The position numbers were made by a program, and so were the translations under genes. From Escherichia coli (lineage in GTDB: Bacteria > Pseudomonadota > Gammaproteobacteria > Enterobacterales > Enterobacteriaceae): 64,000 bases of DNA. Under the pieces are notes generated by a model that ran no database searches, was not told where the DNA came from, and saw nothing but the letters and a program-made list of their open reading frames with translations. Numbering within the stretch: position 1 is the first letter of the stretch; every line of letters starts with the position of its first letter. Location: NCBI GenBank assembly GCA_023061495.1, contig GCA_023061495.1_3643.1; one strand, given 5' to 3'. Positions 6,777 to 60,012 of this stretch are shown here, piece after piece.

Positions 6777-8323
6777 TGTCTAAGATTTACGGACCGTGTT
6801 CTGAAAAGCAGAAGATGATCCTAGAAAACGATGCGGATATTTTGGTAATCGGCGGTGCCGCAGGGTCTGGCAAGTCGTTCCTCCTGCAGTTGATGCCGCT
6901 TAAAATTATTGATGACCCCCACAGCTCTGTGGTTATGTTCCGAAGAACAACCCCACAGTTGGAAGGTGAGGGTGGGCTATGGCCTAAAGCAGTAGCTATT
7001 TATAGTGATCTGCCTGAAAACATTAAGCCAAAGTTCAGAGAGAAGGATCATAAGTTTATTTTCCCACGGTTTGATCCGAGCACTGGCAAGTGGGATAGAA
7101 GCAAAAAGGGAGCTGTTGTAAAATACTGCCACATGGAGTATGTACAGGATAAGCTTAACCATCAAGGTCTTGAGTACACCATGGTTTGCTTCGACGAGGG
7201 CACGCAGTTCGAATGGGAGCAGATAGACTATCTGATGTCTCGTCTGCGATCTCAGTCAAAGTATCCATCAAGAATGGTTATTAGCTGTAACCCCGATTCA
7301 GAACACATGCTTGCCAAACTGGTTAGATGGTGGTTGGACGATGAAGGATATCCAGATCCGGAGAAATGCGGTAAGAAAAGATATTTTATCCGACGCGACG
7401 GTGAATTTATCTGGGGAGACTCTAAAGAAGAGTTGATAGAGAAATACACCACGGTTAACGGACTGGGTGTGGAGATCAAGCCAAGACCGTTGTCATTCTC
7501 ATTTATAGGCGCAACAATATTCGATAATCCTGTCTGCTTAAGAGACAACCCCGAATACCTTGCTTTCCTTGAAGGTCTGCCGGAACTGGAAAAAGCTCAG
7601 CTTCTTCATGGTAACTGGTTTGCAAAGCCTGAGGGTGCAAACTATTTTCAAAGATCTTTCCTTCGTGATGCCGATAGAGTACCCCTTGGATCAGTATCTT
7701 GTAGGGCATGGGATAAGGCAGGAACCGAGAGAACTTCCGGTAATAAATTTCCTGACTTTACCGCCAGTGTTAAGGTAAGTAAGGATAGCGACGGCTTTTA
7801 TTACCTGTCCGGTGATTATTGTCCTGAGAACGTGGATGACGGGAGATATTCCACAGGTCTGGAAGGTAAGTTCTGTAAAAAGGCTGGTGAACGAGATGTG
7901 ATCATCAGGAAACAGGCGCAGTTTGATGGTGATGATTGTATAATCGTATTCTCTGTGGACCCAGGTCAGGCAGGTAAGAGTGAGTTCTTAACCTCCTCCA
8001 GATCCTTACTCGCCGAAGGGTTTAGGGTTGAAGAAGACCCAATGCCTTCCAACAAATCTAAACTAACAAGGTTCTCCCCTTTTGCCAATCTTGCCCAACA
8101 AGGGATGGTGAGGATTGTAAAATCCAGTTTCCATCCTGACACTCTGGAAGCATTTCTGACTGAACTTGAAAAGTTCAACGGGGAAAGATCAACATTTAAC
8201 AGAAAAGACGACTGGGCCGACTGTGTGGCTTCTGCGATTAATTTCCTGGAGAAAGAGGAGGTAGCACTTCCTTGTGTGATTCCATCAATCTCATCACCTT
8301 CTATGTTCAAGCGTTTTATCTAA
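6776..8323 (+). CDS. terL: terminase large subunit
   Basis: 515 aa; Walker A ADILVIGGAAGSGKSF near the N-terminus; Walker B-like MVCFDEGTQF; first gene of the head module. Confidence 0.85.
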   Translation: MSKIYGPCSEKQKMILENDADILVIGGAAGSGKSFLLQLMPLKIIDDPHSSVVMFRRTTPQLEGEGGLWPKAVAIYSDLPENIKPKFREKDHKFIFPRFDPSTGKWDRSKKGAVVKYCHMEYVQDKLNHQGLEYTMVCFDEGTQFEWEQIDYLMSRLRSQSKYPSRMVISCNPDSEHMLAKLVRWWLDDEGYPDPEKCGKKRYFIRRDGEFIWGDSKEELIEKYTTVNGLGVEIKPRPLSFSFIGATIFDNPVCLRDNPEYLAFLEGLPELEKAQLLHGNWFAKPEGANYFQRSFLRDADRVPLGSVSCRAWDKAGTERTSGNKFPDFTASVKVSKDSDGFYYLSGDYCPENVDDGRYSTGLEGKFCKKAGERDVIIRKQAQFDGDDCIIVFSVDPGQAGKSEFLTSSRSLLAEGFRVEEDPMPSNKSKLTRFSPFANLAQQGMVRIVKSSFHPDTLEAFLTELEKFNGERSTFNRKDDWADCVASAINFLEKEEVALPCVIPSISSPSMFKRFI

Positions 8324-15475: not shown

Positions 15476-16026
15476 TGGAAGCTTTCGAAAAAGTTTTTTC
15501 TGATCTTGAAACAACCATTGCTAAGCTTGTCAAGGTTGCCACAGGAAGAACTGTAGTTCTGGCAGAAAGCTCTACCATACCGAAGCCGGAAGGTGAGTTT
15601 GTACTTTTACAAACCTTGGCGATCAATCCCACCACTTGGGAAGATAATGAGTTTCAAGATGCGGAGGGTAATGCTTACGTAACACACAGTTACACTGTTA
15701 CCTATCTGTTAACAGCTTATCGTGGCAGGGCACATGCTGCACTTGGCAGAGTATTGCAAGCAATAAACCTTCCAATGTTTTATGACAAGTATTTCCCTCT
15801 GGGATCGTGCTTTGCCTACTCTAACAATTCAACAATCTCACCTCAAAGAGTGCCGTTGAATAAGCAGGCGTATGAAAATAGGGCCACGGTAATGCTGACA
15901 TTTAACGTAAGGTTTGTTGAGACAGACATTGGGGCTTTTGAGGATCTTCAGGGAATTAAGGCTGAAATAACCACACACTTCCCTCCACCCAATTCTGATA
16001 AATCGGTTACAGACAGTGGTCAGTAA
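15475..16026 (+). CDS. tail completion/terminator-type protein (by position)
   Basis: 183-aa ORF start-overlapping the previous stop. Confidence 0.35.
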   Translation: MEAFEKVFSDLETTIAKLVKVATGRTVVLAESSTIPKPEGEFVLLQTLAINPTTWEDNEFQDAEGNAYVTHSYTVTYLLTAYRGRAHAALGRVLQAINLPMFYDKYFPLGSCFAYSNNSTISPQRVPLNKQAYENRATVMLTFNVRFVETDIGAFEDLQGIKAEITTHFPPPNSDKSVTDSGQ

Positions 16027-16098
16027 TCGTTATAATTGTGTAGTGTAATGATTACACTGCGTGTTTGATATCCGTGCACAGATATTAAGAGGAAACAA

Positions 16099-17475
16099 AT
16101 GCCATATTTAGATAAAGTGGTAGATGTTACAGTTAACCTCGGAACCCAACCTATTGACACTGTAGGTTTCGAAACTCCGCTGTTCATCGCTATCCACAAC
16201 AACTTTACTGAGCGAGCTCGTGTATATGCTGAGCTGGATCAGATGGTGGAAGACGGTTTCGCACAAGGCTCTGCAGCGTATGAGTTTGCAGCAAAAGCTT
16301 TCGGCGGTGTATTCCCTCCACAGTATGTTATGATCGGCAGACAAGCCAAAGAAAAAACCACTGTAGATTTTAAAGGTATTGCTGCCGCAGCTGATACCGA
16401 TGTCGTAATGACCATTGCAAAAGGTGGCTACAATACTTCTTTGATAGTCCCTATCTCTGGTGGAACAGGTGCAACTCAGATTGCAGAGGCAATGAAGACT
16501 AAAATCGAAGCCGATGATAACTTGGACGATATCACTGTAGAGGCTGCTGAAGGTGTTATCACCATCACTGGTAACTGCACTGTTGGTTATCATACTGGTA
16601 ACTATACAATCAAAAATATCGCCAATGCTGAAAAACCTTCTACAGTAGTTGATAAGATCAATGCTGAGCGGGACAATTGGTACTTCCTGTGCCATGAAGA
16701 CCACACCGACATTGAAGCATGTGCTAAGTGGGCTCAGGCTAACTACAAGCTGCATGTCTACTCTACTGCAGAAGATGTGACTGGCAAAGAAAGTAACATC
16801 GCCACCAAACTGATGGCTGCACAATATGATAGTGTCGGCATGTACGATCCTCGTGCGGATAAAGATTTTCCGGAGGGTGGTATCATAGGTGCTATGGCAT
16901 CCAACGACCCGTCTTACGGTGACAGTTTGCACTTAAAACAGATGCCTGGTGTGATTGCACCATCTCTGACTTTGACTCAGCGTATGGCGATTTGGGAAAA
17001 CCACGTTAACTTCTACAGAATGATTAACGGTGTTGGCGCTTTCTGGGAAGGTAAGTGTGCTTCAGGTCAGTATGCAGACGCTATTCGTTTTGCACACTGG
17101 ATCAAGTTCAGATCTGAAGAATCCATGTTCGGGTACATGCATCGCCGCTCCAATATGGGTTTAAGCATGAAGATGTCTGATGATGATCTTCCGGTTATCA
17201 AGTCTGTTCTGATGAACAACCCGATCAATACTGGCATTAAGAATGGCGCGATCCTGACAGGTTTTGACGAAGACAACAATGTGTTCTACGACCCGATCAT
17301 CACAGTTCCTAAACGTGCAGAAATCCCAACCAATCAGTTGGCTGCTCGTGTTCTGGAAGGTGTGAAAGTAGAACTGGTGTATAACAACGCCTTGCACTTC
17401 GTTCGTATCCGGATCAACGTCCTCCTGGACAAAGTTGGTTCTAAATCCACCAATGCTGTTGCAATGACTGAATAA
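16099..17475 (+). CDS. tail sheath-like major tail protein
   Basis: 458 aa, AAGAGGA RBS, high-expression codon usage; immediately followed by a 157-aa tube-like protein, chaperone and tape measure; family assignment from memory only. Confidence 0.5.
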   Translation: MPYLDKVVDVTVNLGTQPIDTVGFETPLFIAIHNNFTERARVYAELDQMVEDGFAQGSAAYEFAAKAFGGVFPPQYVMIGRQAKEKTTVDFKGIAAAADTDVVMTIAKGGYNTSLIVPISGGTGATQIAEAMKTKIEADDNLDDITVEAAEGVITITGNCTVGYHTGNYTIKNIANAEKPSTVVDKINAERDNWYFLCHEDHTDIEACAKWAQANYKLHVYSTAEDVTGKESNIATKLMAAQYDSVGMYDPRADKDFPEGGIIGAMASNDPSYGDSLHLKQMPGVIAPSLTLTQRMAIWENHVNFYRMINGVGAFWEGKCASGQYADAIRFAHWIKFRSEESMFGYMHRRSNMGLSMKMSDDDLPVIKSVLMNNPINTGIKNGAILTGFDEDNNVFYDPIITVPKRAEIPTNQLAARVLEGVKVELVYNNALHFVRIRINVLLDKVGSKSTNAVAMTE

Positions 17476-17485
17476 GGAAGACTAG

Positions 17486-17959
17486 ATGGAAACTCAAATT
17501 TTAACTCCTTATGCGTATGACCCTAAAAAGGTCAAACTGTATCTGATGCAGCAGCGTGTCACTGGCTTCGCTGCTGACACCAAGATCGTTGTTTCAAGAA
17601 ACGAAGACAACATCTACCCTCACGTTGGTGTGGATGGTGAAATGTCTGCGGCACTGTCTCGTAACCAATCTGGTGTTATGACTGTATCCTTACAGAACAC
17701 TTCTGTATGGAACGCTTACCTTTCTGACTGGCAGAAACAGGCATCGATTACTGGTCTGGTATTCTTCCCGGTTCTGCTGGAAGGTAGCCAGGGTCCAGGC
17801 ATTGCTACAATCGGTTGGATCCAGAAACAGCCTGACCTGACTTACGGAACCGAAGTAGGTCAACTGGACTGGGATATCGGTATTCTGGATGCATGGCTCA
17901 ACCGTGACAACATCACTGGTGCTCTCACTGGCCTCGCAGGTCTTGCAGGTATTATCTAA
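17486..17959 (+). CDS. tail tube-like protein
   Basis: 157 aa directly after the sheath-like gene, AAGGAAG RBS, followed by a terminator. Confidence 0.45.
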   Translation: METQILTPYAYDPKKVKLYLMQQRVTGFAADTKIVVSRNEDNIYPHVGVDGEMSAALSRNQSGVMTVSLQNTSVWNAYLSDWQKQASITGLVFFPVLLEGSQGPGIATIGWIQKQPDLTYGTEVGQLDWDIGILDAWLNRDNITGALTGLAGLAGII

Positions 17960-17974
17960 GAGCACACTCTAGCA

Positions 17975-18003
17975 TAGGCCTCACCTTTGGGTGGGGCTTT
18001 TTG
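17975..18003 (+). terminator. terminator-like hairpin plus T-run
   Basis: gcctcacc-tttg-ggtggggc followed by TTTTTGCTTTT. Confidence 0.55.
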
Positions 18004-18064
18004 CTTTTAGGGTTTTGACATATTTGTTTGTTTTTAGTATCCTATAATAAAGGAGGAGACAGTC

Positions 18065-19690
18065 ATGGCTAAATTGAGTGCAGAAAGGTTTATCGAAAAA
18101 GCTCGTAGGGTTCACGGAGATAAGTACGACTATTCTCTTATAGAATACAAAACATGCAAAGATAAGATAGAAATAGTCTGCAATACCTGTGGTAACCACT
18201 TCAACCAGACACCGGATAACCATATAAATCTAAAAAGAGGATGCCCTGTTTGTGGAGCTGAGAGATCTGCAAAATCAAGAAAGGGTAAGAAATTCCCCCA
18301 TGAGCGTGGTAACAGGTGCACTACAGAAGAGTGGATCAAGAAGGTACTAAAAAGATATCCTGAAAATGCTGAAAAGTATGATTATAGTCATGTAGTGTAC
18401 AAGACCTCTGGAGATAAGGTTGAGATTCATTGCAAAATGTGCGGAAGAATAATGCACCAGAAACCTAGCAAGCATTTGTCAGGGCAAGGATGCAAGACTT
18501 GCGCAGCAAGATCTGTTTCTGCGAAAAAAGTTCCTAGCTTCCAAGAAATAGTTGAGAGATGTGTAGAAGTACATGGTAGTGATTATGAGTATTTTGAAGA
18601 CTCTTATGTGAACACCTCAACACCTATGATGATGCGCCACAAAGAGTGTGGGAATATCTTCATGCAGCGTCCTGAATTCCATTACGGGAAAGGACAAGGA
18701 TGCCCTCGTTGCTGTCGAAATCAGTCTAATGGTGAGAAAGAGATCCTGACGTTCATTAAAAGTGTGTATAGCGGCGATATTGAAGAGAACGTGCGTATTC
18801 TGGGCAACTTTAAGGATCCTTCCAAGAAAAAGATGGAGCTGGACATTTATGTTCCGGAGCTTAAGCTTGCTGTGGAATATAATGGTGCCTACTGGCACTC
18901 TGTAGACAGTAAGGGGAAATGGTACCACATCCTGAAAAGGAAGGCCTGTGAAAAACAAGGTATTCGCATGTTGTCTATCTGGGATTGTGATTGGCAGGAT
19001 GCTCGGAAAAGACCTATCATTGAGAGATATCTCAAGAATGCTTTAGGAGTCAAAGACGAGAAGACCGTCTATGCCAGAAAGTGCACAGTTAAAGATGTGG
19101 ACAATAAAACTTACCGTGACTTTATGGAGAAAAACCACATTCAAGGGTATGCCCCCGCCAAGGAAGTGAAGAAGGGTCTGTTTACATCTGACGGCGAGCT
19201 GGTAGCTTGTATGAGTTTTAAAATACTGAAAAACAGAGATCAAAAGGTAACCCCTTTCGTTATGTGGGACATGGTAAGGTATGCAACAAGCTGTAACGTT
19301 CCTGGTGGGCGTAGTAAGCTGTTTAAGCATATCCGAGAAGAGTTTAAGATGGATCATGTTCAATCCTTCCTTGACAGAGATTACTTCACAGGCGTGTCCT
19401 ATAAGGAGGAGGATGGCTGGATTTTGGCAGAGGACGATCAGGTGTCTACGAGCTTCTGGAGCTACCGTGGTGGCAGAATGCCAAGGCAGGCGTGGTGGAA
19501 GTCAAACATCCCAGAGACACTGAAGCATCTCGGGTTGGACGAGTCCTTATACGATCCTGAGAAAACACAAGAGTGGAATGCCAAAAATGCAGGCTGCTAT
19601 ATCCTTGAAAACAGTGGCAACTCTCGCTTTGAATGGCACAGTGATGAAGGTAAAAATGATCCTGCATACTTGGATTGGTTGAAAGGTTAA
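18065..19690 (+). CDS. endonuclease-like protein with three tandem Zn-ribbon modules (candidate free-standing homing endonuclease)
   Basis: 541 aa, AAAGGAGGAG RBS; three ~90-aa repeats each ending in a C-x2-C...C-x2-C pair (CNTCGNHF...CPVCG; CKMCGRIM...CKTCA; HKECGNIF...CPRCC); then ELDIYVPELKLAVEYNGAYWHS, resembling PD-(D/E)xK/Vsr-like cores; inserted between tube and chaperone genes. Confidence 0.45.
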   Translation: MAKLSAERFIEKARRVHGDKYDYSLIEYKTCKDKIEIVCNTCGNHFNQTPDNHINLKRGCPVCGAERSAKSRKGKKFPHERGNRCTTEEWIKKVLKRYPENAEKYDYSHVVYKTSGDKVEIHCKMCGRIMHQKPSKHLSGQGCKTCAARSVSAKKVPSFQEIVERCVEVHGSDYEYFEDSYVNTSTPMMMRHKECGNIFMQRPEFHYGKGQGCPRCCRNQSNGEKEILTFIKSVYSGDIEENVRILGNFKDPSKKKMELDIYVPELKLAVEYNGAYWHSVDSKGKWYHILKRKACEKQGIRMLSIWDCDWQDARKRPIIERYLKNALGVKDEKTVYARKCTVKDVDNKTYRDFMEKNHIQGYAPAKEVKKGLFTSDGELVACMSFKILKNRDQKVTPFVMWDMVRYATSCNVPGGRSKLFKHIREEFKMDHVQSFLDRDYFTGVSYKEEDGWILAEDDQVSTSFWSYRGGRMPRQAWWKSNIPETLKHLGLDESLYDPEKTQEWNAKNAGCYILENSGNSRFEWHSDEGKNDPAYLDWLKG

Positions 19691-19691
19691 A

Positions 19692-19720
19692 TTGACAATG
19701 CACTATAATCATGGTAAAAT
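19692..19720 (+). promoter_or_regulatory. sigma70-like promoter (TTGACA-N17-TAAAAT)
   Basis: Read directly, about 45 nt upstream of the chaperone gene. Confidence 0.5.
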
Positions 19721-19763
19721 ACACAAATATGGTGCACAACATGACTAATAAGGATGCTATAAA

Positions 19764-20237
19764 ATGGCTATAAACTTTAGACCTACAACAGAGATTGATT
19801 TAGCAGGGCACAACTTTGTGATCACCCACTGGGGACCGATGAAAGCAATGAAAAACATGCCTAAAATCGGTAAGATTGTAGCTGTCCCGCTAGGTGCTAT
19901 CGGTGGATCTATTCTCTCAGGCGGTCAGAATATGGCAGAGGTCCTTCCTACAGCCCTGGCTTACCTGTTCCAAGAACTTGATGATAACTCTATCGAAGAG
20001 TTATTTAAAATCTTGTTTGAAGATATTACCGTGGATGGTGTGGATAAGCTTAACCCTGATGTTGTGTTTGCAGGGCATCTGCTGGAGATGATTAAGCTGG
20101 CAGGTAAGGTTCTGGAGGTTAACTACGGCTGTTTTTTCACACAAGACGGTTTAGGAAGCCTTCTGGAGATGTTACAGCAGATGGGTATGATTCAGCAGGT
20201 GAACAATCTGGATCAGACTCCGGAAGAGCAGGAATAA
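19764..20237 (+). CDS. tail assembly chaperone (G-like)
   Basis: 157-aa acidic protein immediately upstream of the tape measure gene. Confidence 0.5.
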   Translation: MAINFRPTTEIDLAGHNFVITHWGPMKAMKNMPKIGKIVAVPLGAIGGSILSGGQNMAEVLPTALAYLFQELDDNSIEELFKILFEDITVDGVDKLNPDVVFAGHLLEMIKLAGKVLEVNYGCFFTQDGLGSLLEMLQQMGMIQQVNNLDQTPEEQE

Positions 20238-20248
20238 GCAAGGTTGTT

Positions 20249-20497
20249 GTGAGGGCCAGTGAGTGGGCAGCCAAGAACAGTTCACTCAACTGGTTCGACT
20301 TTCTTTGGTGCAGGGTGCTTAAGAATTTCAAAGGGGAAAATTTTGAATCGCTAAATCTTGCAGATATGGCGTATTTCCTGAAGCTCTGTGAGTATCTTGA
20401 TATCGAAGAATTCCTAGATACCGTCCAAAACAGGGAAATGGAGCGGGAGCAGAAGGCTGCCGCAGCTGCTGCGAAAGCTAAGCGCAGGAGAGGATAA
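20249..20497 (+). CDS. possible -1 frame extension of the chaperone (GT-like) or separate small protein
   Basis: ORF in the -1 frame relative to 19764-20237; that frame is open for at least 80 nt upstream of the chaperone stop; GTG start with weak RBS. Confidence 0.3.
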   Translation: MRASEWAAKNSSLNWFDFLWCRVLKNFKGENFESLNLADMAYFLKLCEYLDIEEFLDTVQNREMEREQKAAAAAAKAKRRRG

Positions 20498-20502
20498 TCT
20501 AA

Positions 20503-20540
20503 GGGCCGGATTCCTTTTCTGGGATCTGGCCCTTTTTATT
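20503..20540 (+). terminator. terminator-like hairpin plus T-run
   Basis: gggccgga...tctggccc stem followed by TTTTTATT. Confidence 0.6.
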
Positions 20541-20551
20541 ATGAGGAAAGC

Positions 20552-22891
20552 ATGGCTACAAACAAAATAGTTGCCACAACAGTCAACAAGATTGGCTTTG
20601 AGATAGAGAACTCCTCCTACAAAAAAGCTGTAGAGAAAATTCGCAGTATTGGGAGGGAGTTCAGGAAACTGGGCGAGGATTTTAACTCAGCCAACCCAAT
20701 GAGTAGATGGCAGGCAGTGGCTGTTAAAACCCAGCAAACAATGCAGCGGGTTGCCAGACAGCAATCTCAGGCAAATGCTAAACTGCACAGGGAGAGCGTA
20801 GCACAAGCCAAGAAAGAGGCTGCAGTAAGGGCTGCAATAGAACGTAGGGAGAACGCAAGACGTAAACAAGCTGTGGGTAATCTTACCGCTAAAAATCCAG
20901 AAATGGCTAGGATGCGTAAGTTCTACCAGCAGCAAGCTAAAGAGGCCAAAAAGGCTGCCAAATCTGCACCAGTGTCTTACGGCGGTTATAAGGCACCCAA
21001 GGCAAGAGTTTTGGCTAATGCCAAATCTTTCAAGTATATCCCTGGTAACCCTAATATGGGTGGTGTGGCTTCCGACCCTAACCTTGTGAAAGCTCAGACA
21101 GCTGCTATGAATCGTTATCATAGACAGCTAAGAAGAGACAGTAAAGCTGGTATGGATAATAAGCTTATGTCTGATCGTGAGGCAAGGAGAACCCACCTAT
21201 ACAACTCTGCGATAAGACTTTCTGCCAAGTATGGGGCCGGATTCCGTGGAAGCTTGCCAGGATACTCAGAGTTAGAGTCTAGGTTTGCTCGCGGTGAGAT
21301 GAAAAAGTCAACCTTTAACGCCCACCTGTCAGCTCTGCAGTCTGGATTTAAAAGCGCCACCAGCCAAACGCTTACACTGGGTGATGCCATGAGAGACTTA
21401 CGTAGGTCTGTTATTAATGCAACAGCTGCGTATACAGCTTTCTCTGGATTTGCTGCGGTTAACAGATCCGGTCACATGATGGAGGGGGCAAGTGCTGCTC
21501 TTACTGCTGTTACTGGAGATCCAAACAAAGCCAACAGCGAGGTTGCGTTTGTCCAGCAAGAGGCTATGCGTCTTGGTTTTGATCTCAAATCTGGTCTTCA
21601 AGGTTACGCCCAGATGTCGGTAAACGCCAAAAACCAGATGACAAATCAGGAAGTGCATGAGCTGTTTTCTGCATACTCACAGTATGCTGCTGCTTACGGT
21701 GCCGATGAGGTAAAATACCAGCGTGGTATTATGGCAATCCAGCAAATGCTCGGTAAAGGGCAAGTAATGTCCGAAGAACTGAAGCAACAACTTGCTGAAG
21801 CATTGCCTGGTGCATACGAACCTTTTATCAAGGCCACCAAAGAGGCTTTTGGTCTTTCTGAACTCTCCATGGATCAGTTCATGGACATGATGAAGAAAGG
21901 CGAGGTTAAAACAGCCAAGATCATGAAGTATGTGGCTAAGTACATGAACGAGGCATCTGCAGCTGGTTATGAAAGAATGCAGAAGTCTAACGTACTGGCA
22001 GAAAACAGACTGAAAACCTTCATTGAACTGTCTCGTCAGAAACTATTCACCCGTTGGGCTGATGAACTAACAGAGTTCTATTATACACTGATTCGCACTG
22101 GTGAGACTTTGCAATTTGTGTGGGATGCCTCTGGTGATTTTGTTAGTGGTTTTGTGAGAGGTCTCAACTGGGTAGTTGGTGAACTAAACAATACCATAGT
22201 CAAGATCCGCATGTTTTTCCTTGAATGGGGGATTAAATGGGGACTCATAACAGCTAAGACGAAGGAATATTCTGAAGAGCTTAATGACACCTTTAGCTAT
22301 GCTAAATGGGCAGGGTTTGCTGCTGCCATTATGCTGGTAGTGAACGCCCTGACAAAAGGTTTTGTCATGGCATCTATGCTTGTAAAAACCTTCAAATTCC
22401 TTAGTTCTATAAGAGGTGCAGCTGGAGCAGCAGGTGCAGGTGCAGCTACCACAGAAGGATCTGGTGGTGGTGCGGCAGGAAAAGGGGGAGGTGGCCTCAA
22501 GACACCTGGTGGTAAAGTTGGCCTGCTTGGTAAGCTTGGTATTATCGGTACAATATTAAGCGCCGTGGAGTTATTTAATGACCGTTTCAACCCACTGAGT
22601 GAGAGAAATCAGCAACTGGATACTGTCAGCGATATGATTCGCAAAGATATCATATCTGGAGGTAACGGGTTTGTTGATCCTTTGGACACCTTACCGGGAG
22701 GGACTCTTCCGTTGCCAGGTGGCCCTGGTTTTGCTTCTCAATTAAGAACTATGGAAATGCTCCCTTTAGAGATTAGTGATGGTAAAATCACGATTTCAAT
22801 AGATGAGGGGGAGTTTAGCAAAATACTTGATGCAAAACTTGAGTGGGAGAACAACAAGGATATTAACTTTATGTCAACAGATCTTTGGTAA
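20552..22891 (+). CDS. tail tape measure protein
   Basis: 779 aa; N-terminal charged coiled-coil region, central tape-measure-like segment (LKQQLAEALPGAYEPFIKATKEAFGL...MKKGEV), hydrophobic segment and Gly-rich stretch (GAAGAAGAGAATTEGSGGGAAGKGGGG). Confidence 0.8.
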   Translation: MATNKIVATTVNKIGFEIENSSYKKAVEKIRSIGREFRKLGEDFNSANPMSRWQAVAVKTQQTMQRVARQQSQANAKLHRESVAQAKKEAAVRAAIERRENARRKQAVGNLTAKNPEMARMRKFYQQQAKEAKKAAKSAPVSYGGYKAPKARVLANAKSFKYIPGNPNMGGVASDPNLVKAQTAAMNRYHRQLRRDSKAGMDNKLMSDREARRTHLYNSAIRLSAKYGAGFRGSLPGYSELESRFARGEMKKSTFNAHLSALQSGFKSATSQTLTLGDAMRDLRRSVINATAAYTAFSGFAAVNRSGHMMEGASAALTAVTGDPNKANSEVAFVQQEAMRLGFDLKSGLQGYAQMSVNAKNQMTNQEVHELFSAYSQYAAAYGADEVKYQRGIMAIQQMLGKGQVMSEELKQQLAEALPGAYEPFIKATKEAFGLSELSMDQFMDMMKKGEVKTAKIMKYVAKYMNEASAAGYERMQKSNVLAENRLKTFIELSRQKLFTRWADELTEFYYTLIRTGETLQFVWDASGDFVSGFVRGLNWVVGELNNTIVKIRMFFLEWGIKWGLITAKTKEYSEELNDTFSYAKWAGFAAAIMLVVNALTKGFVMASMLVKTFKFLSSIRGAAGAAGAGAATTEGSGGGAAGKGGGGLKTPGGKVGLLGKLGIIGTILSAVELFNDRFNPLSERNQQLDTVSDMIRKDIISGGNGFVDPLDTLPGGTLPLPGGPGFASQLRTMEMLPLEISDGKITISIDEGEFSKILDAKLEWENNKDINFMSTDLW

Positions 22892-30090: not shown

Positions 30091-33000
30091 ATGGCTGATA
30101 TTAAAGTTGTCAGAATTGAATCTCTTCCTGCCACTACCGCAGTGACAGAGGATGATTACCTGGTTGTTCAACAACCAGACCTGACCCGTCGTGTAAAAAT
30201 TGGCGATGTTGTCCATGTGGATGGGACTGTTTCTCATGTAATCTCCTTTAAGGAAGGTGGTAAGTTAAACGGCCCAATGGATTTTGCCTACTTCGAAGAG
30301 GAAGACCTCTACCTGCGTTGGAAAGGCGAATTTCCGCACACTGTTCCTGCACTGTCTTCACCTTACGCTGATGGTGGGATTACCGATGCTGCATGGATGG
30401 TATATACAGATCCGTCCTTAAGGGAGGAGCTGGAATCTACCATTGGTGCATCTATGATCATGACAGCCGAAGGGCAGTCTGTCCAGGATGTAATGGATGT
30501 TACGGTTCAGACAGCCAACGATGCTAAAGCGCTTGCACAGCGGGTAGATTTTGGTACAGTGCATACTGTAGGCGATGTCATTCACCTTGTCAACTTTGTT
30601 GGTCCTGCAGTTATTGAAGAGGGAAGAACCACTAACTACCCTTCTGAAGCAGCTGGTGAAAAATTTCTGAACGGTGTGGTATCTCGTCGTGATACTACAA
30701 CTGTTGATGGTATTTTCCGTGGCGCTACCTCAGGAGCCATGTATACCATTGCAGTAACCAACGGTGTAGCAACAACAAAAAGAATAGCACTTCGTGATGA
30801 ATTTAAACGCCTGGAGGCAAACAATCCAACAAGAACAGTTATCCGTGCTGGAGATGATTTAAACACAGCAGGGTACTTGCAGCTTGATGCAACAGGCCGT
30901 TGGGGTATGTGGAACCAGCAAACAGCCTCGTGGCAACCTCTTGCTATAGAGCAAGGCGGTACAGGAGCCAGAGATGCCGCTGGAGTCCGTATCAATATCG
31001 GTGCTTTCTATAAGCAACGTGCAGCCCTTGAGGCAAATTTTAATATCAATAACTTGACTGGTAATCAGGACGGCATATACTATCAGCCGATGACTGCTAA
31101 TGCAACTGAGGCAAATGGTTACCCTGCAGGTTCTGGTGCTGGTCACTTGATTGTTTGGCAGAACAATGCTAACGGCGGTACAGGTTGTCGTCAGGAATAC
31201 TATCCATTCTCTAACGTGGATGTTTGGTATTTGAGAACCTATCAGGCTAACACAAACCAGTGGACTGCATGGCAGCCGATGGTCAGACCTCGGAATGATG
31301 ACACCTTCAGATCTCATATCGGCCTTGGTAAAAACAACTCTCCTGCTTTCGGGCACCTTTACTTAGCGCAATACTCAGGAGATGTTAAATCTGCTTCAGG
31401 TATTCTCCATGGAGATAAATATAACACTGATGGTGTTCTAGAGCATGGCTATAGGATCTACTCCGAGGTAAGAAACGACAATAAGGCGTGGTTAACAATC
31501 CACCTGCACAAAGGCGCAAAAGGATCTGAAACTCATAGATATTTAGGCTTCCGTGAGGATGGGGTCTTAGATTGTCCTAAATATATGCAGGTTGGTGATC
31601 TGAACGGTCAGCTGGCAAACTGGGGACTTGGAGAATGGATTCGTAGTTCAGGGGCAGAAAGAGGATTCTGGGGTTCCAAGAAAGCCGCCAAGATGGTAGT
31701 CTGGGATGGAGGGATGGACGAGTCCGGTAATGGTACTCTGGAATGGGGTGTTTATAACAACCGGAAGGCCAAGTGGGAACCTTTACCTCAGGCCGCAGGT
31801 GGCACTGGAGCTACAACTTTAGCAGATGCTCAGAATCTGTTCAAAGTTCCTGTAGCGGCAGGCGTAAAAGATTTCTTAACACTGCCAAGAACTGCAGGAA
31901 TGGAAGATGGGAAATACTACCCAATCATCGTTAGAACAGATCCATACTATGCGCCCACAACTGGTACTGATATTACTATAGTTACCAGATCGTCATCTGG
32001 CAGTGACCCTATGAACTGTGCGACCTTACAGTGTCACTATAGAACTGGTGGGTGGACAGACAGAGGGGATTCTTTCCAAGGGGTTATTAATTTCTACCAA
32101 AACGAGAAAGCAATTCTTGGATGTGTATCCCCAACCAGAGGAAAGCAGGAGTATGTTGCATTCTATGTTGAGTCGCGTGCTTTCCCTGTCAGTGTCTACA
32201 CAAGCAGAAACGTTCTTGAGGTATTTACCAGAGAAAATGACTGGCAGGTAGGAAATGTTACTAATAACCAAGATGGTGTCAAGTTTTGCGCCCCTCTTGC
32301 GTCGGATAATTTAAGCCTTGCAATTAAAGGTGATGATGTAACAAACACTAGGATTCTTGCGGAGTTCAAGGGAACACCTGGGTTCTATACAGGCGGTAGT
32401 ACAGATCGGCACTATATAGGCACACCTGACCGAATGGTTCTGATGAGTAAGACAGAAATGCCCCCTGTAGAGATGTGGTACAACGGTCTTAACTACATTT
32501 GCCCGGGTAGCCAAACCACTAGAAAAGCACTGTTCTCTAACGCAGGGTTCCAAGCTGCATCGGAAGGAACAGGGGATCTGATCAACAATACCTTTACCTC
32601 TAAATGCGGTAATGGCGCAAGACTGCAAGGACAGGCAGAGTTCAGATCTACTCCAGAGGCTGGTCAAGTTATTGTTCGTGATGTTGTAGGTTCTGCTCAC
32701 AGATTCTACAACTTCAACAAAGATGGCACTTTCTCAGCTCCTGGTGGTTTTGTATGCCACACTGGTGCAGACTGGAACAACCAGTTTGGGCCTAATAACC
32801 CGTCCAAAATACTGGCTGGTAACGTCAACGGGCCTGAAGGTTCAATGGTTGTTGGCGGGTTGTCTGTGGCGTTTTCTGGAAACTATGCTTTCCAGATGGC
32901 AGGTAGTTTAGATCAGCTGTACACCCGTTCCATAGAGCGGGGTAACCACAGAGCGTGGAACAAAGTTATTCAGCACCGTGGTCAAGGGTTGGGGACTAGT

Positions 33001-34527
33001 GACCTTAACGATTACAAAGCGGATCGCGAAGGTATTTACCATCAAGAGGCAAATGCCAACGCCACAGCGGAAAGACACTACCCACCAGGGAAGCAGATGG
33101 CTGGTACGCTGATCGTGCTTAGAAACTCTGCCAACGAAGGTACAGGTTGTGTCCAGATATATAAAATGTATCTTGGGGGAACGTGGGAAAGGTACTATAA
33201 TAACACTGGCAGCGGAATGAACTGGAGCCCTTGGAAGAGAACGAGCTTCCCAGAAAGTACAACTGCCCCAGTCATGCCTGACCTGTGGTTGCCTTTAACC
33301 TCTAATCTAAAACCTGTACTAGGTGAAGGTGAGATGGTGTTCTCCAGACCTTCTACAGCAACATATTTCACTAAGCGCGGTGTCATGGCTGTTGCACAGG
33401 CAAACCAACCACGTTTCGAAAGAGATGGTCTGCTCATTGAAGGTCAAAGGACAAATCTGATGCTTAACAGTGAAGACCCGAGCAAATGGGGAGCCCAGTC
33501 ACAGATTACGGTCGGCAACACTGTAACAAACACCAACGGCACAAAAGGTGCAAGATTTACAGTAAGCAACGTATCCGGTGTAGAAACAACGGCGTTAAAC
33601 CTGGCTACAGTTCCAGCCACCCGAGGTGCAGATGTAACAGGTGCTGAGAAATTTTGTACTGGATCTATTATTGCAAGAGGTGGTAAAGCTCACCAGAGAC
33701 TGCGTGTAAGATTCGACATGTATAACGGATCCACCACAGTATTCCAGGGTGATGCCTATGTTAACCTGTCAACACTTGAAGTTAAAACAACAGGTGGTGC
33801 AGCTGGGAGAATTAAAGTAAAAGCTGAGAGATGGCAAACAGCCGGACCTGCTTGGATAAGGGTTGTTGCTACGTTTGAGGCAGTGGCCTCTGACATGAAT
33901 ATTGGGTGCCAGTTCCAGATTGCCCCGCCGGAGGGTTCTCAACACGCCGCAGGGGATTGGATTGACGTCGCAATACCTCAGTTTGAGTTAGGATCTTGTG
34001 AGTCCTCGTTTATCCCTACAGGGTCTTCACCAGTGACTAGGGCAGCAGACCTTTGTAAATTCCCAATGACTGATAATTTAGCACCTAGACCGTTCACCAT
34101 CGCCGCTACTGTGGATGCCAACTGGAGAGGTTGGGGAAAAGCTCCTAACGCAGCTCCTAGGGTTATTGATACAGAGGGTCGCGCTGCATTTATCATGGGG
34201 TTTGGCTCTGCAGCGAATATTGCAGAAGATGGTTATCCATATTGCGATATTGGTGGTTCAAACAGACGTGTTTATGAGATGGCTAAAGCACGTAAGTTGA
34301 AGATGGGGTTCAGGATAAAAGAAGATGGTAAAACCTGCTCTTTTGCCAACGGTCTGGTGAGCACGGAAACACAATCTTCTTGGGAATTCCTGGCAGGAGG
34401 CGCTCTCATCCGTCTCGGCGGTCAAACAGCGACAGGAGAAAGACATTTGTTTGGTCATATTAAAGATGTAAGAGTTTGGAACTCTGCATTGACCGATACC
34501 CAGCTTATGATGGAGAGTGTTGAATAA
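30091..34527 (+). CDS. long tail fibre protein with internal repeats
   Basis: 1478 aa; N-terminal anchor domain shared with 26788; internal repeated modules (NNANGGTGCRQEYYPF and NSANEGTGCVQIYKMY; QGGTGAR and AAGGTGAT). Confidence 0.6.
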   Translation: MADIKVVRIESLPATTAVTEDDYLVVQQPDLTRRVKIGDVVHVDGTVSHVISFKEGGKLNGPMDFAYFEEEDLYLRWKGEFPHTVPALSSPYADGGITDAAWMVYTDPSLREELESTIGASMIMTAEGQSVQDVMDVTVQTANDAKALAQRVDFGTVHTVGDVIHLVNFVGPAVIEEGRTTNYPSEAAGEKFLNGVVSRRDTTTVDGIFRGATSGAMYTIAVTNGVATTKRIALRDEFKRLEANNPTRTVIRAGDDLNTAGYLQLDATGRWGMWNQQTASWQPLAIEQGGTGARDAAGVRINIGAFYKQRAALEANFNINNLTGNQDGIYYQPMTANATEANGYPAGSGAGHLIVWQNNANGGTGCRQEYYPFSNVDVWYLRTYQANTNQWTAWQPMVRPRNDDTFRSHIGLGKNNSPAFGHLYLAQYSGDVKSASGILHGDKYNTDGVLEHGYRIYSEVRNDNKAWLTIHLHKGAKGSETHRYLGFREDGVLDCPKYMQVGDLNGQLANWGLGEWIRSSGAERGFWGSKKAAKMVVWDGGMDESGNGTLEWGVYNNRKAKWEPLPQAAGGTGATTLADAQNLFKVPVAAGVKDFLTLPRTAGMEDGKYYPIIVRTDPYYAPTTGTDITIVTRSSSGSDPMNCATLQCHYRTGGWTDRGDSFQGVINFYQNEKAILGCVSPTRGKQEYVAFYVESRAFPVSVYTSRNVLEVFTRENDWQVGNVTNNQDGVKFCAPLASDNLSLAIKGDDVTNTRILAEFKGTPGFYTGGSTDRHYIGTPDRMVLMSKTEMPPVEMWYNGLNYICPGSQTTRKALFSNAGFQAASEGTGDLINNTFTSKCGNGARLQGQAEFRSTPEAGQVIVRDVVGSAHRFYNFNKDGTFSAPGGFVCHTGADWNNQFGPNNPSKILAGNVNGPEGSMVVGGLSVAFSGNYAFQMAGSLDQLYTRSIERGNHRAWNKVIQHRGQGLGTSDLNDYKADREGIYHQEANANATAERHYPPGKQMAGTLIVLRNSANEGTGCVQIYKMYLGGTWERYYNNTGSGMNWSPWKRTSFPESTTAPVMPDLWLPLTSNLKPVLGEGEMVFSRPSTATYFTKRGVMAVAQANQPRFERDGLLIEGQRTNLMLNSEDPSKWGAQSQITVGNTVTNTNGTKGARFTVSNVSGVETTALNLATVPATRGADVTGAEKFCTGSIIARGGKAHQRLRVRFDMYNGSTTVFQGDAYVNLSTLEVKTTGGAAGRIKVKAERWQTAGPAWIRVVATFEAVASDMNIGCQFQIAPPEGSQHAAGDWIDVAIPQFELGSCESSFIPTGSSPVTRAADLCKFPMTDNLAPRPFTIAATVDANWRGWGKAPNAAPRVIDTEGRAAFIMGFGSAANIAEDGYPYCDIGGSNRRVYEMAKARKLKMGFRIKEDGKTCSFANGLVSTETQSSWEFLAGGALIRLGGQTATGERHLFGHIKDVRVWNSALTDTQLMMESVE

Positions 34528-34859
34528 TGAATACTTTTACCCTTGGGTTTACTGGTAGGGAGGATTTTAACGGTTTCATGGACGAAATCGGCTTTTACGA
34601 GAACGAGGTGTTGCAAAACACCCTTCTTGTAGAGGTTGTCGGGTTTATTTACACAGAAACTGAAGACACTTATGAGGCCGAGGACGAGTTTGGCAACATG
34701 GTTGTCTACCCAGTTTGCGAGAAAAGTAAATTGTTTTATGTCAACGTTCTGGCTCTAGACGAGGATGCAGAAAACATCGTCTCGAAAAGCGGAAAAGTTG
34801 TAGATCCGATAAGGTTGAACATGTTCGACCAATCAGTATCTACCTTGGAAGCACTTTAA
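34527..34859 (+). CDS. small acidic protein after the fibre (possible fibre chaperone)
   Basis: 110 aa, start overlaps the fibre stop; followed by a strong terminator. Confidence 0.3.
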   Translation: MNTFTLGFTGREDFNGFMDEIGFYENEVLQNTLLVEVVGFIYTETEDTYEAEDEFGNMVVYPVCEKSKLFYVNVLALDEDAENIVSKSGKVVDPIRLNMFDQSVSTLEAL

Positions 34860-34865
34860 AGTATT

Positions 34866-58525: not shown

Positions 58526-58971
58526 AACAGATATAGCTCCTTATGAAAGTGGGCTTTCAATTTCTCACCGAGAAACTTCTTGATACCTTCCTCTAAAGTG
58601 TTTTCGATGTAGTCCAGCTTAACTGCTTCGATAGACATATCATAGATCGCCAGCTCTAAGCTGTCAAGTCCCATCATAGCATGAACCATAAGATTTTCAT
58701 CTTCAGATACATTCAGGGGACTTCCTATAACATCTGGAGGCAGAATAGTTTCCCAATTATTCTGGGCGGTAGATCTCCCGCCATCCACCTTACGTCTCAG
58801 CTCGAATGTATTCTTAGTGTAGAACACTTCATAAGAAACGATACGACTGTCACTCTCATAATAGACGAAGTTCAAGTAGGAGCCCAGCCGTAGTCGGCAA
58901 ACTTCTACCCCAAACCATTGTTTCTTATAAGAATTCAGGCTAATGCTGTCGCATTCACGTTTGCTCAACAC
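58522..58971 (-). CDS. hypothetical protein
   Basis: 149-aa ORF in the operon. Confidence 0.35.
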   Translation of the reverse strand: MLSKRECDSISLNSYKKQWFGVEVCRLRLGSYLNFVYYESDSRIVSYEVFYTKNTFELRRKVDGGRSTAQNNWETILPPDVIGSPLNVSEDENLMVHAMMGLDSLELAIYDMSIEAVKLDYIENTLEEGIKKFLGEKLKAHFHKELYLL

Positions 58972-58987
58972 GGCTCTCTCCTTCTTG

Positions 58988-59221
58988 TTAATCTTCGTAA
59001 ATAATGATTTCTGCTTTAGGTTTTCGTGCTTTCAGGTCCAGCTCTATCCAGTGCACCATCGCTGTTTCAAGAAAAACAGCCTGGATGCATCCGTCTTCAG
59101 CGTGCCCTACCAGCATAACAAGATCTTCACATTCATCATCTGCATCACGGACATACAAGATCTCTCCAGATTCAAAGTCTTTCACAACCTGATTGCTGGA
59201 TAATTTACGAATTTTTGCCAT
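58988..59221 (-). CDS. small protein, divergent member of a tandem paralogue family
   Basis: 77 aa; shares the general pattern (hydrophobic core GE-LYV ... V-L ... Gxx, acidic tail) with the three 87-aa genes upstream. Confidence 0.4.
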   Translation of the reverse strand: MAKIRKLSSNQVVKDFESGEILYVRDADDECEDLVMLVGHAEDGCIQAVFLETAMVHWIELDLKARKPKAEIIIYED

Positions 59222-59222
59222 A

Positions 59223-59486
59223 TCAGAAACCCTCTAAAAAGCTCTTGTAGAAAATAATCTCAGTATCCACACCAGTCACGATCTTGTCGTTCCTGATTTC
59301 ATCTGTAAGATAGGTGTCAAAACGCAGCACCTGTGTGGTATTGTCACACATCCACTCGGCTGTTACCATGGCAAAAATCTTAGCATCTTCATTATCTGGT
59401 GTAAATGTTACCACCTCACCGCATTTAAACTTTTCGATAGGTTGCGTGTTAGCTTTTGGTTCTGCAATGGTGATTTTCGTGGTCAT
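59223..59486 (-). CDS. small protein, tandem paralogue 3 of 4
   Basis: 87 aa; CGEVVTF...DTEIIF aligns with PGTVVMF/CGTVVSC...ITILGE of its neighbours; start adjoins the previous stop. Confidence 0.45.
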   Translation of the reverse strand: MTTKITIAEPKANTQPIEKFKCGEVVTFTPDNEDAKIFAMVTAEWMCDNTTQVLRFDTYLTDEIRNDKIVTGVDTEIIFYKSFLEGF

Positions 59487-59749
59487 TATTCTCCTCCTTC
59501 TTTTGAATAGCTTGTCTCTCCAAGGATGGTAATTTTGGTGTCAAGCTCTGTAACTTTCATGTTTGGTGGCAGATCGTACAACTCATTATTTTCTAAATCG
59601 AACCCCCATACACAATGTTCCCCTGTTTTGACAATCATAACTATGTTTTGAATGCCGTCTCCGTCACAACTTACCACGGTCCCACATGGAAAACTGTCTG
59701 CACGCTTTTTGTTCTTCACTTTAGAATTGAATACAATGCTAGTAGCCAT
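59486..59749 (-). CDS. small protein, tandem paralogue 2 of 4
   Basis: 87 aa; MATSIVFNSKVKNKK...CGTVVS...FDLENNELYDLP...VTELD..ITILGE parallels paralogue 1. Confidence 0.45.
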   Translation of the reverse strand: MATSIVFNSKVKNKKRADSFPCGTVVSCDGDGIQNIVMIVKTGEHCVWGFDLENNELYDLPPNMKVTELDTKITILGETSYSKEGGE

Positions 59750-60012
59750 TATTGTTCCTCCACCATAACTTCGCCAAGAATTTCTATGCAGGCATCCATT
59801 TCTGTAACAACCAAGGTGTGAGGTAGTTCTGCAAACACCTTTCTGAACAGGTCAAATACCCCAACATATATGTTTGCAGGATGTGATCTCACAACAAGTG
59901 CTGTATTCACATCTCCAAGTTCATCAACAAACATCACCACAGTACCTGGAGCTACTGAAGACAGATACTTCTTAGTTTTACGGTTGGATGCAAATTTTAA
60001 CTCTGTTGCCAT
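59749..60012 (-). CDS. small protein, tandem paralogue 1 of 4
   Basis: 87 aa; MATELKFASNRKTKK...PGTVVMF...FDLFRKVFAELP...VTEMD..IEILGE. Confidence 0.45.
   Translation of the reverse strand: MATELKFASNRKTKKYLSSVAPGTVVMFVDELGDVNTALVVRSHPANIYVGVFDLFRKVFAELPHTLVVTEMDACIEILGEVMVEEQ

Follow-up and report, generated by a model that had tools for sequence, protein, structure and literature searches.

The subject of the present analysis is a 64,000-nucleotide stretch of DNA (hereafter the window) from contig GCA_023061495.1_3643.1 of the Escherichia coli assembly GCA_023061495.1, which to judge by its content is DNA of a Vequintavirus (rV5-like coliphage), and in particular one open reading frame (ORF) inserted in its tail operon. 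The ORF runs on the plus strand from 18065 to 19690, with an ATG start, 541 codons, and a TAA stop. As the first-pass annotation of this DNA had described, it lies between the tail-tube gene, which has a terminator of its own, and the promoter of the tail-assembly-chaperone gene, which starts at 19764. The coordinates of these features and of the parts of the encoded protein are collected in Table 1.

Table 1. Features at the tube/chaperone junction of the window
Feature	Position	Strand	Details
Tail-tube gene	17486-17959		
Terminator-like hairpin of the tube gene, followed by a T-run	17976-17999	+	terminator scan
Candidate hybrid sigma-70 promoter	18015-18043	+	promoter scan; 10/12 matches
Inserted cassette, 1648 bp	18021-19668	+	local blastn against rV5 positions 1-72000, pairwise alignments, 14-genome junction table
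Ribosome-binding site AAGGAGG	18050-18056	+	8 nt 5' of the ATG; read from the sequence
Zn-ribbon module 1	18065-18304	+	residues 1-80; ligands C39, C42, C60, C63
Zn-ribbon module 2	18305-18529	+	residues 81-155; ligands C123, C126, C143, C146
Zn-ribbon module 3	18530-18724	+	residues 156-220; ligands H192, C195, C213, C216
Predicted Vsr-like (EDxHD-type) nuclease domain	18725-19054	+	residues 221-330
Predicted Mom-family GNAT-fold domain	19055-19687	+	residues 331-541
Native chaperone-gene promoter (rV5 P51): TTGACA, 17 nt, TAAAAT, extended TG	19692-19720	+	promoter scan, rV5 annotation

An occupied and an empty junction

The cassette is bounded exactly by the tube-gene terminator and the chaperone promoter P51, and no gene is interrupted by it. 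The terminator hairpin is native DNA, kept in all 13 relatives compared below, and the equivalent site carries a terminator annotation in phage EdH4. On the opposite side, the stop codon of the inserted gene is found 1 nt before the -35 hexamer of P51. The insertion point is identical in all carriers, 3' of GGTTTTGACA and 5' of TTGAAAGGTTAA, with CACGTTCTTGAATTGC replaced; the empty-site DNA exchanged for the cassette amounts to 6 nt according to blastn, or to approximately 16 nt (CACGTTCTTGAATTGC) according to the multi-genome comparison. At the left junction, the native TTGACA is followed after 17 nt by an insert-derived TATCCT, and this combination may function as a hybrid promoter. The G+C content of positions 18001-19000, within the cassette, is 0.41, compared to 0.44-0.47 in the adjoining tail genes, a slight depression that is consistent with a foreign origin.

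A scan with Rfam for a group I intron or other RNA family around the gene gave two weak matches only, far under the gathering scores (E about 0.6), which indicates that the gene is free-standing. A search for transposon-like terminal repeats around the cassette returned short matches only, and no paralogues of the 541-residue protein were found within the window. The cassette is bracketed by a 16-nt inverted pair of 88% complementarity (18019-18034 and 19716-19731), one arm of which has its first base at the left boundary of the insert while the other is native and lies within and just 3' of the -10 hexamer of P51; this pairing is probably due to chance.

Megablast with window positions 15500-22000 as the query matched 137 phage records, almost all of them Vequintavirus, with HMD-6 as the best match (98.2%). 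The gene is covered in only five of these records, namely HMD-6, JEP1, PDX, and the 'Campylobacter' phages A147 and A135, while those listed without it each give an alignment split in two that covers 75% of the query. Over 95% of the close relatives lack it at this position. The junction was also compared directly in 14 genomes, the window and 13 relatives, comprising six carriers and eight non-carriers. The spacer measures 162 bp in every one of the non-carriers (rV5, FV3, FFH2, WalterGehring, YP-6, nom, Mangalyan, and EdH4), whereas at the same point it measures 1801-1804 bp in the window, HMD-6, and JEP1, and 2022-2037 bp in PDX, A147, and A135. None of the six carriers has a disrupted ORF. 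The check recommended at first pass, whether related phages lack the gene at this junction, is thus answered in the affirmative. What emerges is the sporadic occupation of one fixed site in otherwise collinear relatives, accompanied by the signs of horizontal spread described below, as is characteristic of a homing endonuclease.

Two further observations were made on these sequences. Approximately 18 of the records are labelled Campylobacter phage (UNVERIFIED; among them MG065644.1 and MG065690.1) and share 93-97% identity with E. coli Vequintaviruses over this region; they are probably mislabelled or contaminant coliphages. In addition, the uninterrupted spacer contains four direct TTGA(A/C)A-like hexamers (TTGACA, cTTGAAt, cTTGAAa, and TTGACA) around the insertion point, at about 3015-3060 of the rV5 extract (L001) and at 18015-18020 and 19669-19697 of the window. 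It is conceivable that these hexamers serve as sub-sites for the tandem Zn modules discussed below, an observation that we note and do not put forward as a claim.

Domain architecture of the inserted gene product

The N-terminal part of the protein is made up of three tandem modules (about residues 1-80, 81-155, and 156-222), which share 27-38% identity with one another in a self-BLASTP comparison. The first-pass annotation had described three modules of some 90 residues, each ending in paired C-x2-C motifs. The number of modules stands, but their length is closer to 75 residues, the first ligand pair is located mid-module with only the second at the module end, and module 3 has H-x2-C as its first pair, followed by C-x2-C, where modules 1 and 2 have two C-x2-C pairs. 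All three modules carry four Zn ligands each, that of module 3 including one His. The best match to the Pfam DUF4379 treble-clef family is module 2. Among 30 close homologues, DUF4379 is matched by 27 and DUF723 by 21 (both at E up to 0.01), and CapR by eight. Barth et al. (2023, PMC10448857) describe repeats of these families as modules with which phage homing endonucleases bind DNA, and from the profile matches the modules of the window protein are tentatively assigned to the same DUF723/DUF4379/CapR class and presumed to bind DNA.

The segment LAVEYNGAYWHS, which had been likened at first pass to Vsr/PD-(D/E)xK nuclease cores, corresponds to residues 268-279 and indeed falls inside the catalytic core of a Vsr-like nuclease domain. 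A single-sequence phmmer search of the PDB yielded only a marginal match to 3r3p, the catalytic domain of I-Bth0305I (E 0.42); the family profile matches the same entry with E 1.1e-5, and the homologues match Pfam MTES_1575, Vsr, and DUF559. The AlphaFold model of residues 214-332, with a predicted local distance difference test score (pLDDT) of 85.9, displays the Vsr-like alpha/beta nuclease fold. The conserved residues of the domain are S221, E224, E258, D260, E271, N273, H278, H288, and K291. Using the roles given in PMC3239194, E224 maps onto E170 of I-Bth0305I and E25 of Vsr, D260 onto D196 and D51, N273 onto N208 and H64, H278 onto H213 and H69, and H288 onto D222 and D97, respectively. 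Four of the five residues of the EDxHD motif (E224, D260, N273, and H278) are present and conserved, K291 is likewise conserved, and the residues at the catalytic positions are invariant or nearly so across 30-90 homologues. In 90 diverse relatives that were chosen on the C-terminal domain alone (see below), D260, E271, H278, and K291 each retain a conservation of 90% or more. The candidate catalytic residues are E224, D260, N273, H278, and H288/K291. The protein matches PHROG 559 with E 1.3e-110, a family that carries the label 'HNH endonuclease'. This label was rejected as a misnomer, given the Vsr-like fold and the absence of any HNH family match in the window protein or in 119 homologues.

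The C-terminal portion of about 210 residues, approximately 40% of the protein, is a separate domain. When the window protein was searched by itself with Pfam and NCBIfam, no family passed its cut-off, and the C-terminal half was left without any match. The model of residues 323-541 (pLDDT 89.6) adopts a GNAT fold, and its top matches in a viral structure library are proteins named 'endonuclease-like' or 'putative homing endonuclease', including those of PA5oct and of Campylobacter phage CP21, the best stand-alone protein in that library being a phage Mom (E 5e-9). The Pfam Mom profile (PF25680) does not match the window domain even at E up to 10; it is matched by the homologue P0088 (33.8 bits vs a cut-off of 27.1 bits), below threshold by P0077, P0065, and P0068, and by 11 of 89 relatives at E up to 1e-3. 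A profile-profile comparison with an alignment of 30 Mom sequences gave a probability of 93% and an E value of 3.3e-7.

The Mom protein of phage Mu (PDB 8bv8; PF25680) is a GNAT-fold enzyme that moves glycine from Gly-tRNA to the N6 of adenine in double-stranded DNA, and for which R111, S124, and R151 are essential and H58, D149, and Y159 are also important (PMC13219725). In the window protein, H58 and R111 correspond to H358 and R405 (both conserved in 90/90 relatives), S124 to S417 (Ser in 69/90), D149 to D437 (66/90), and Y159 to Y446 (88/89). At the position of R151 the window protein has D439, and Arg is present in 40 of the 90 relatives. Conserved equivalents are accordingly found for five of the six key residues checked, among them the essential R111 and S124, and together with G414 these five (H358, R405, S417, D437, and Y446) are the conserved residues of the domain. 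The differences from Mu Mom are the missing Pfam match, D439, and the fusion to a nuclease.

A HMMER search with the Mom-like domain against 1.84 billion cluster representatives retrieved 8818 clusters (50% identity) at E up to 1e-3, in which the domain is almost always C-terminal in proteins of 430-700 residues. None of the 90 relatives chosen on it contains an HNH, GIY-YIG, or T5orf172 domain. Because the nuclease residues stay conserved in proteins picked on the Mom-like domain, and no other nuclease type occurs in them, the two domains can be regarded as a fixed pair, while the N-terminal DNA-binding part varies among the relatives between Zn ribbons, DUF7487, and helix-turn-helix (HTH) elements. 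The 'stand-alone' Mom-like relatives that were examined offer no evidence for a split system: P0140, P0163, and P0255 begin inside the nuclease domain and P0129 is encoded on a 1-kb contig, such that these cases look like fragments. The Mom-like domain thus appears to be an obligate and strongly constrained partner of the nuclease, the two being almost always paired. It might either aid in DNA recognition, by providing a pocket for adenine or base flipping, or modify the target adenine and in this way protect the carrier genome.

This architecture bears directly on the idea that the gene encodes a virion or tail-assembly protein native to the tail operon, for which its position between the tube and chaperone genes is the sole support. 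Each of the three parts of the protein has been assigned to a family of domains that act on DNA, no structural-protein match was obtained in Pfam, PHROGs, or PDB, the tube terminator and the chaperone promoter enclose the gene, and most relatives have identical tail genes and lack it. We consider the probability of such a role to be negligible. A structural profile match and universal presence were the two observations that the first-pass annotation had named as contrary to its proposal of a mobile endonuclease or DNA-targeting enzyme, and what was found instead is no such match and a gene covered in 5 of 137 records.

Mobility, relationship to Hef-like enzymes, and alternative readings

The insert differs from that of the window at 8 of 1648 nt in HMD-6 and at 16 of 1648 nt in JEP1, whereas in the adjoining 500-nt flank bins the differences number 14-35 nt to the left and 5-29 nt to the right. 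Among the three phages, the flanks diverge by 3-7%, with the cassette far closer at 99-99.5% identity, and the flanks of FV3, which lacks the gene, are as close to the window as those of the carriers. It follows from these two comparisons that the cassette has spread recently across diverged backbones. The mobile insertion in the tail operon that had been suspected from the sequence is hence substantiated, both by the absence of the gene from more than 95% of the close relatives and by a cassette that is far more alike than its surroundings.

A sister allele of 611-616 residues occupies the same junction in PDX (extract L003, 3074-4924), A147 (L004), and A135 (L006), and has a fourth Zn-ribbon module at its N-terminus, so that the module number varies between alleles (3 vs 4). 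The window and PDX alleles share 76.6% nucleotide identity, as compared to 94-97% in the flanks, with a synonymous divergence (dS) of about 2 and a ratio of nonsynonymous to synonymous divergence (dN/dS) of 0.067. Taken by domain, the nuclease has a dN/dS of 0.056 and the Mom-like domain, the most constrained part of the protein, one of 0.029; the Zn modules have a dN of 0.26. At the start of the module that aligns to module 2 of the window (RCTTEEWIKKVLKRYPENAEKYDYSHVVY), A147 is identical to the window at the protein level and PDX is not, which points to shuffling of segments between the alleles. The single-nucleotide polymorphisms (SNPs) private to the three-module allele (17961, 17969, 18010, and 19704) and to the four-module allele (17914 and 17966) are all within about 110 nt of the junction, which fits short co-conversion tracts. 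A closely similar cassette, a diverged second allele, and a low dN/dS form, on these sequence comparisons, the pattern to be expected of a functional free-standing homing endonuclease.

The same data can be set against the possibility that the gene is a decaying or domesticated remnant that has lost cutting and mobility and acts as a DNA-binding regulator, for example near P51, similar to CapR, a domesticated nuclease of a phage satellite. The Zn modules are related to the DNA-binding domain of CapR (PMC10448857), the gene ends immediately next to the chaperone promoter, and the fifth motif residue of the nuclease is not the canonical Asp, all of which would be in line with such a role. However, the ORF is intact in every carrier, the nuclease is under the purifying selection expressed by its dN/dS of 0.056, its residues D260, E271, H278, and K291 are retained among the diverse relatives, and the cassette has recently spread across different backbones. 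Moreover, it would be surprising for 96% of the relatives to lack a gene that regulates an essential tail operon. We therefore find this possibility very improbable.

The database labels of related proteins point in the same direction as the genomic pattern. The protein matches phrog_3339, 'homing endonuclease', with E 1.6e-66, RefSeq names the homologues 'homing endonuclease', and the JEP1 protein, 99.4% identical, appears in UniProt as 'Hef-like homing endonuclease'. Taylor et al. (2011, PMC3239194) assigned the phage enzymes of the Hef type to the Vsr-like EDxHD family. Hef of the T4-like phage U5 is a homing endonuclease that cleaves nrdB (PMC2988022), and in phage LIMEstone1 free-standing Hef-like genes adjoin tail-tube and baseplate genes (PMC3296691). 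The Hef-like examples include the U5 Hef prototype, F-LimIII, VII, VIII, and X of the Dickeya phage LIMEstone1, and the enzymes of the Campylobacter phages CP220 and CP21. Like these, the window gene is free-standing, intergenic, sporadic, and located beside conserved, often structural, genes; furthermore, the top structural matches include the CP21 'homing endonuclease', and the tblastn matches include Dickeya phages. It is unlike the described Hef-like genes in its site, the Vequintavirus tube/chaperone spacer, and in having three Zn modules, or four in the sister allele.

From this evidence, the gene is most probably, at a probability that we put at roughly 0.8, a free-standing homing endonuclease gene (HEG) of the Hef-like branch of the Vsr-like (EDxHD) family, residing in the spacer between the tube terminator and the chaperone promoter. 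The tube/chaperone junction of the Vequintaviruses is then a previously undescribed site for an ordinary member of a known family. The EDxHD prototype I-Bth0305I (PDB 3r3p) is an intron-encoded protein of 266 residues with NUMOD/HTH elements and without a C-terminal extension. Compared to it and to E. coli Vsr (1cw0), the window protein is distinguished by its free-standing gene, its Zn ribbons, the His288 in place of Asp as the last motif residue, and the 210-residue Mom-like domain after the nuclease. Tandem N-terminal Zn-ribbon modules in variable number are shared with the T5orf172/GIY-YIG homing endonucleases that carry CapR/DUF723/DUF4379 repeats in ICP1 and other phages (Barth et al. 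2023), whereas the catalytic domain of the window protein is Vsr-like.

The homing reaction that we propose would take place in cells co-infected by a carrier and a relative without the gene. A long asymmetric DNA site would be bound by the tandem array of three treble-clef Zn-ribbon modules, the Vsr-like domain would cut the DNA, and repair of the break by recombination from the carrier genome would copy the 1.65-kb cassette and a few tens of flanking bases into the empty site. The target is most likely the empty junction itself (GGTTTTGACA / CACGTTCTTGAATTGC / TTGAAAGG), because its disruption is the sole change that is common to all carriers and absent from the non-carriers. The Seg and Mob enzymes of T4 have distant target sites with resistance mutations. 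An arrangement of this kind was considered for the present gene and rejected, as no SNP separating all carriers from all non-carriers is found within ~2.5 kb on either side.

A number of points weigh against this assignment. The scores of the window protein itself are under the Pfam gathering cut-offs for both DUF4379 (18.3 vs 24.5 bits) and DUF723 (13.9 vs 20.9 bits). There is no NUMOD or HTH match at its N-terminus, where Zn ribbons are found instead, unlike in I-Bth0305I, and the fifth EDxHD position is His rather than Asp (H288; His in 73 and Asp in 4 of 83 aligned sequences). The Hef-like assignment was reached via the UniProt name of the JEP1 protein and the placement of Hef-type enzymes in PMC3239194. 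The placement of the target across the junction relies on elimination, given the lack of carrier-specific flank SNPs, and the presence/absence pattern and the close conservation of the cassette could be explained as well by a beneficial accessory gene that travels by ordinary recombination.

Mom domains fused to restriction-endonuclease (REase)-fold nucleases have been described in jumbo phages by Iyer et al. (2021), who read them as a combination of restriction and protective 'momylation', cite PA5oct for five 'momylating enzymes', and make no mention of homing endonucleases in the paper. The match of the present C-terminal model to a PA5oct protein suggests that the Mom-REase and the Hef-like descriptions concern the same family. 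The window protein could by analogy be a single-chain weapon resembling a restriction-modification system, in which the Mom-like domain modifies the adenines of the phage itself and the nuclease degrades the unmodified DNA of the host or of a superinfecting phage. Besides the reading of Iyer et al. and the PA5oct protein among the top viral matches, the conservation of the catalytic equivalents H358, R405, S417, and Y446, the very low dN/dS of the Mom-like domain (0.029), and its nearly constant association with the nuclease speak for this alternative. It is, however, difficult to reconcile with the fact that over 95% of otherwise near-identical Vequintaviruses are without the gene, which implies that it is not needed for genome protection. 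In addition, an array of three or four sequence-reading Zn modules points to a single long and rare site rather than a frequent restriction site, the occurrence of two diverged alleles at exactly the same intergenic point together with a cassette more conserved than its flanks is a signature of homing, and the prototype Hef has been reported as a homing endonuclease cleaving nrdB. A pure weapon of this type is thus judged to be unlikely, although the two readings are compatible, since a homing enzyme could use modification for self-immunity.

This leads to a more speculative version of the homing endonuclease, which we regard as unlikely. Here, two enzymes would be obligately joined in the Hef-like homing endonucleases: the Zn array would guide to the homing site an active Mom-like adenine modifier (possibly aminoacyl-tRNA-dependent, as in Mu) that marks the carrier copy or the repaired product, and the Vsr-like nuclease would cut naive genomes only. 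The proposal is compatible with four observations: one domain hardly ever occurs without the other, equivalents of five of the six key residues of Mom that were checked are conserved, the Mom-like domain is under the strongest constraint, and the immunity of the carriers is explained by no flank polymorphism except the disruption of the junction. If correct, it would describe a homing element with built-in epigenetic self-immunity, joining the logic of homing with that of restriction-modification.

The locus provides a clean natural example of what is probably a free-standing HEG, caught both occupied and empty and represented at one site by two diverged alleles. It also allows the labels 'hypothetical protein' and, via PHROG 559, 'HNH endonuclease' to be corrected to a protein with Zn-ribbon, Vsr-like, and Mom-like parts, and it brings together two literatures in which one widespread protein family is treated as 'Hef-like homing endonucleases' on the one hand and as 'Mom-REase fusions' acting as restriction-modification systems on the other. 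Well-matched phages with and without the gene that grow on E. coli K-12 make this a convenient system in which to ask what a Mom-type domain does in a homing endonuclease.

Other variable loci of the window

Three other places at which the window differs from rV5 were noted in passing. In the gene of the terminase large subunit, the window lacks, at 7200-7202 and 7518-7519, the rV5 segments 60128-60447 (~320 bp) and 58832-59810 (~980 bp). The latter includes the HNH endonuclease gene gp066, and the rV5 terminase is annotated as joined from three pieces. Since both segments are absent from the window, its terminase gene runs uninterrupted through two points where rV5 has intervening sequences. 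Judging from this comparison, the terminase locus provides a second case in the window of a mobile element that is polymorphic for presence or absence.

Window positions 33045-34860 have no match in rV5, the counterpart of these 1816 bp measuring 868 bp there. They comprise the C-terminal part of a tail-fibre gene of 1478 codons (30091-34527) and an ORF of 110 codons (34527-34859), and probably represent a swap of the receptor-binding tip together with its chaperone. Finally, three back-to-back ORFs of 87 residues each, visibly related to one another, are found on the minus strand at 59223-59486, 59486-59749, and 59749-60012. Of this region, 500 nt (59498-59997) are without a match in rV5, which has about 230 nt at the same place, suggesting that the three ORFs constitute a tandem gene family of variable copy number.

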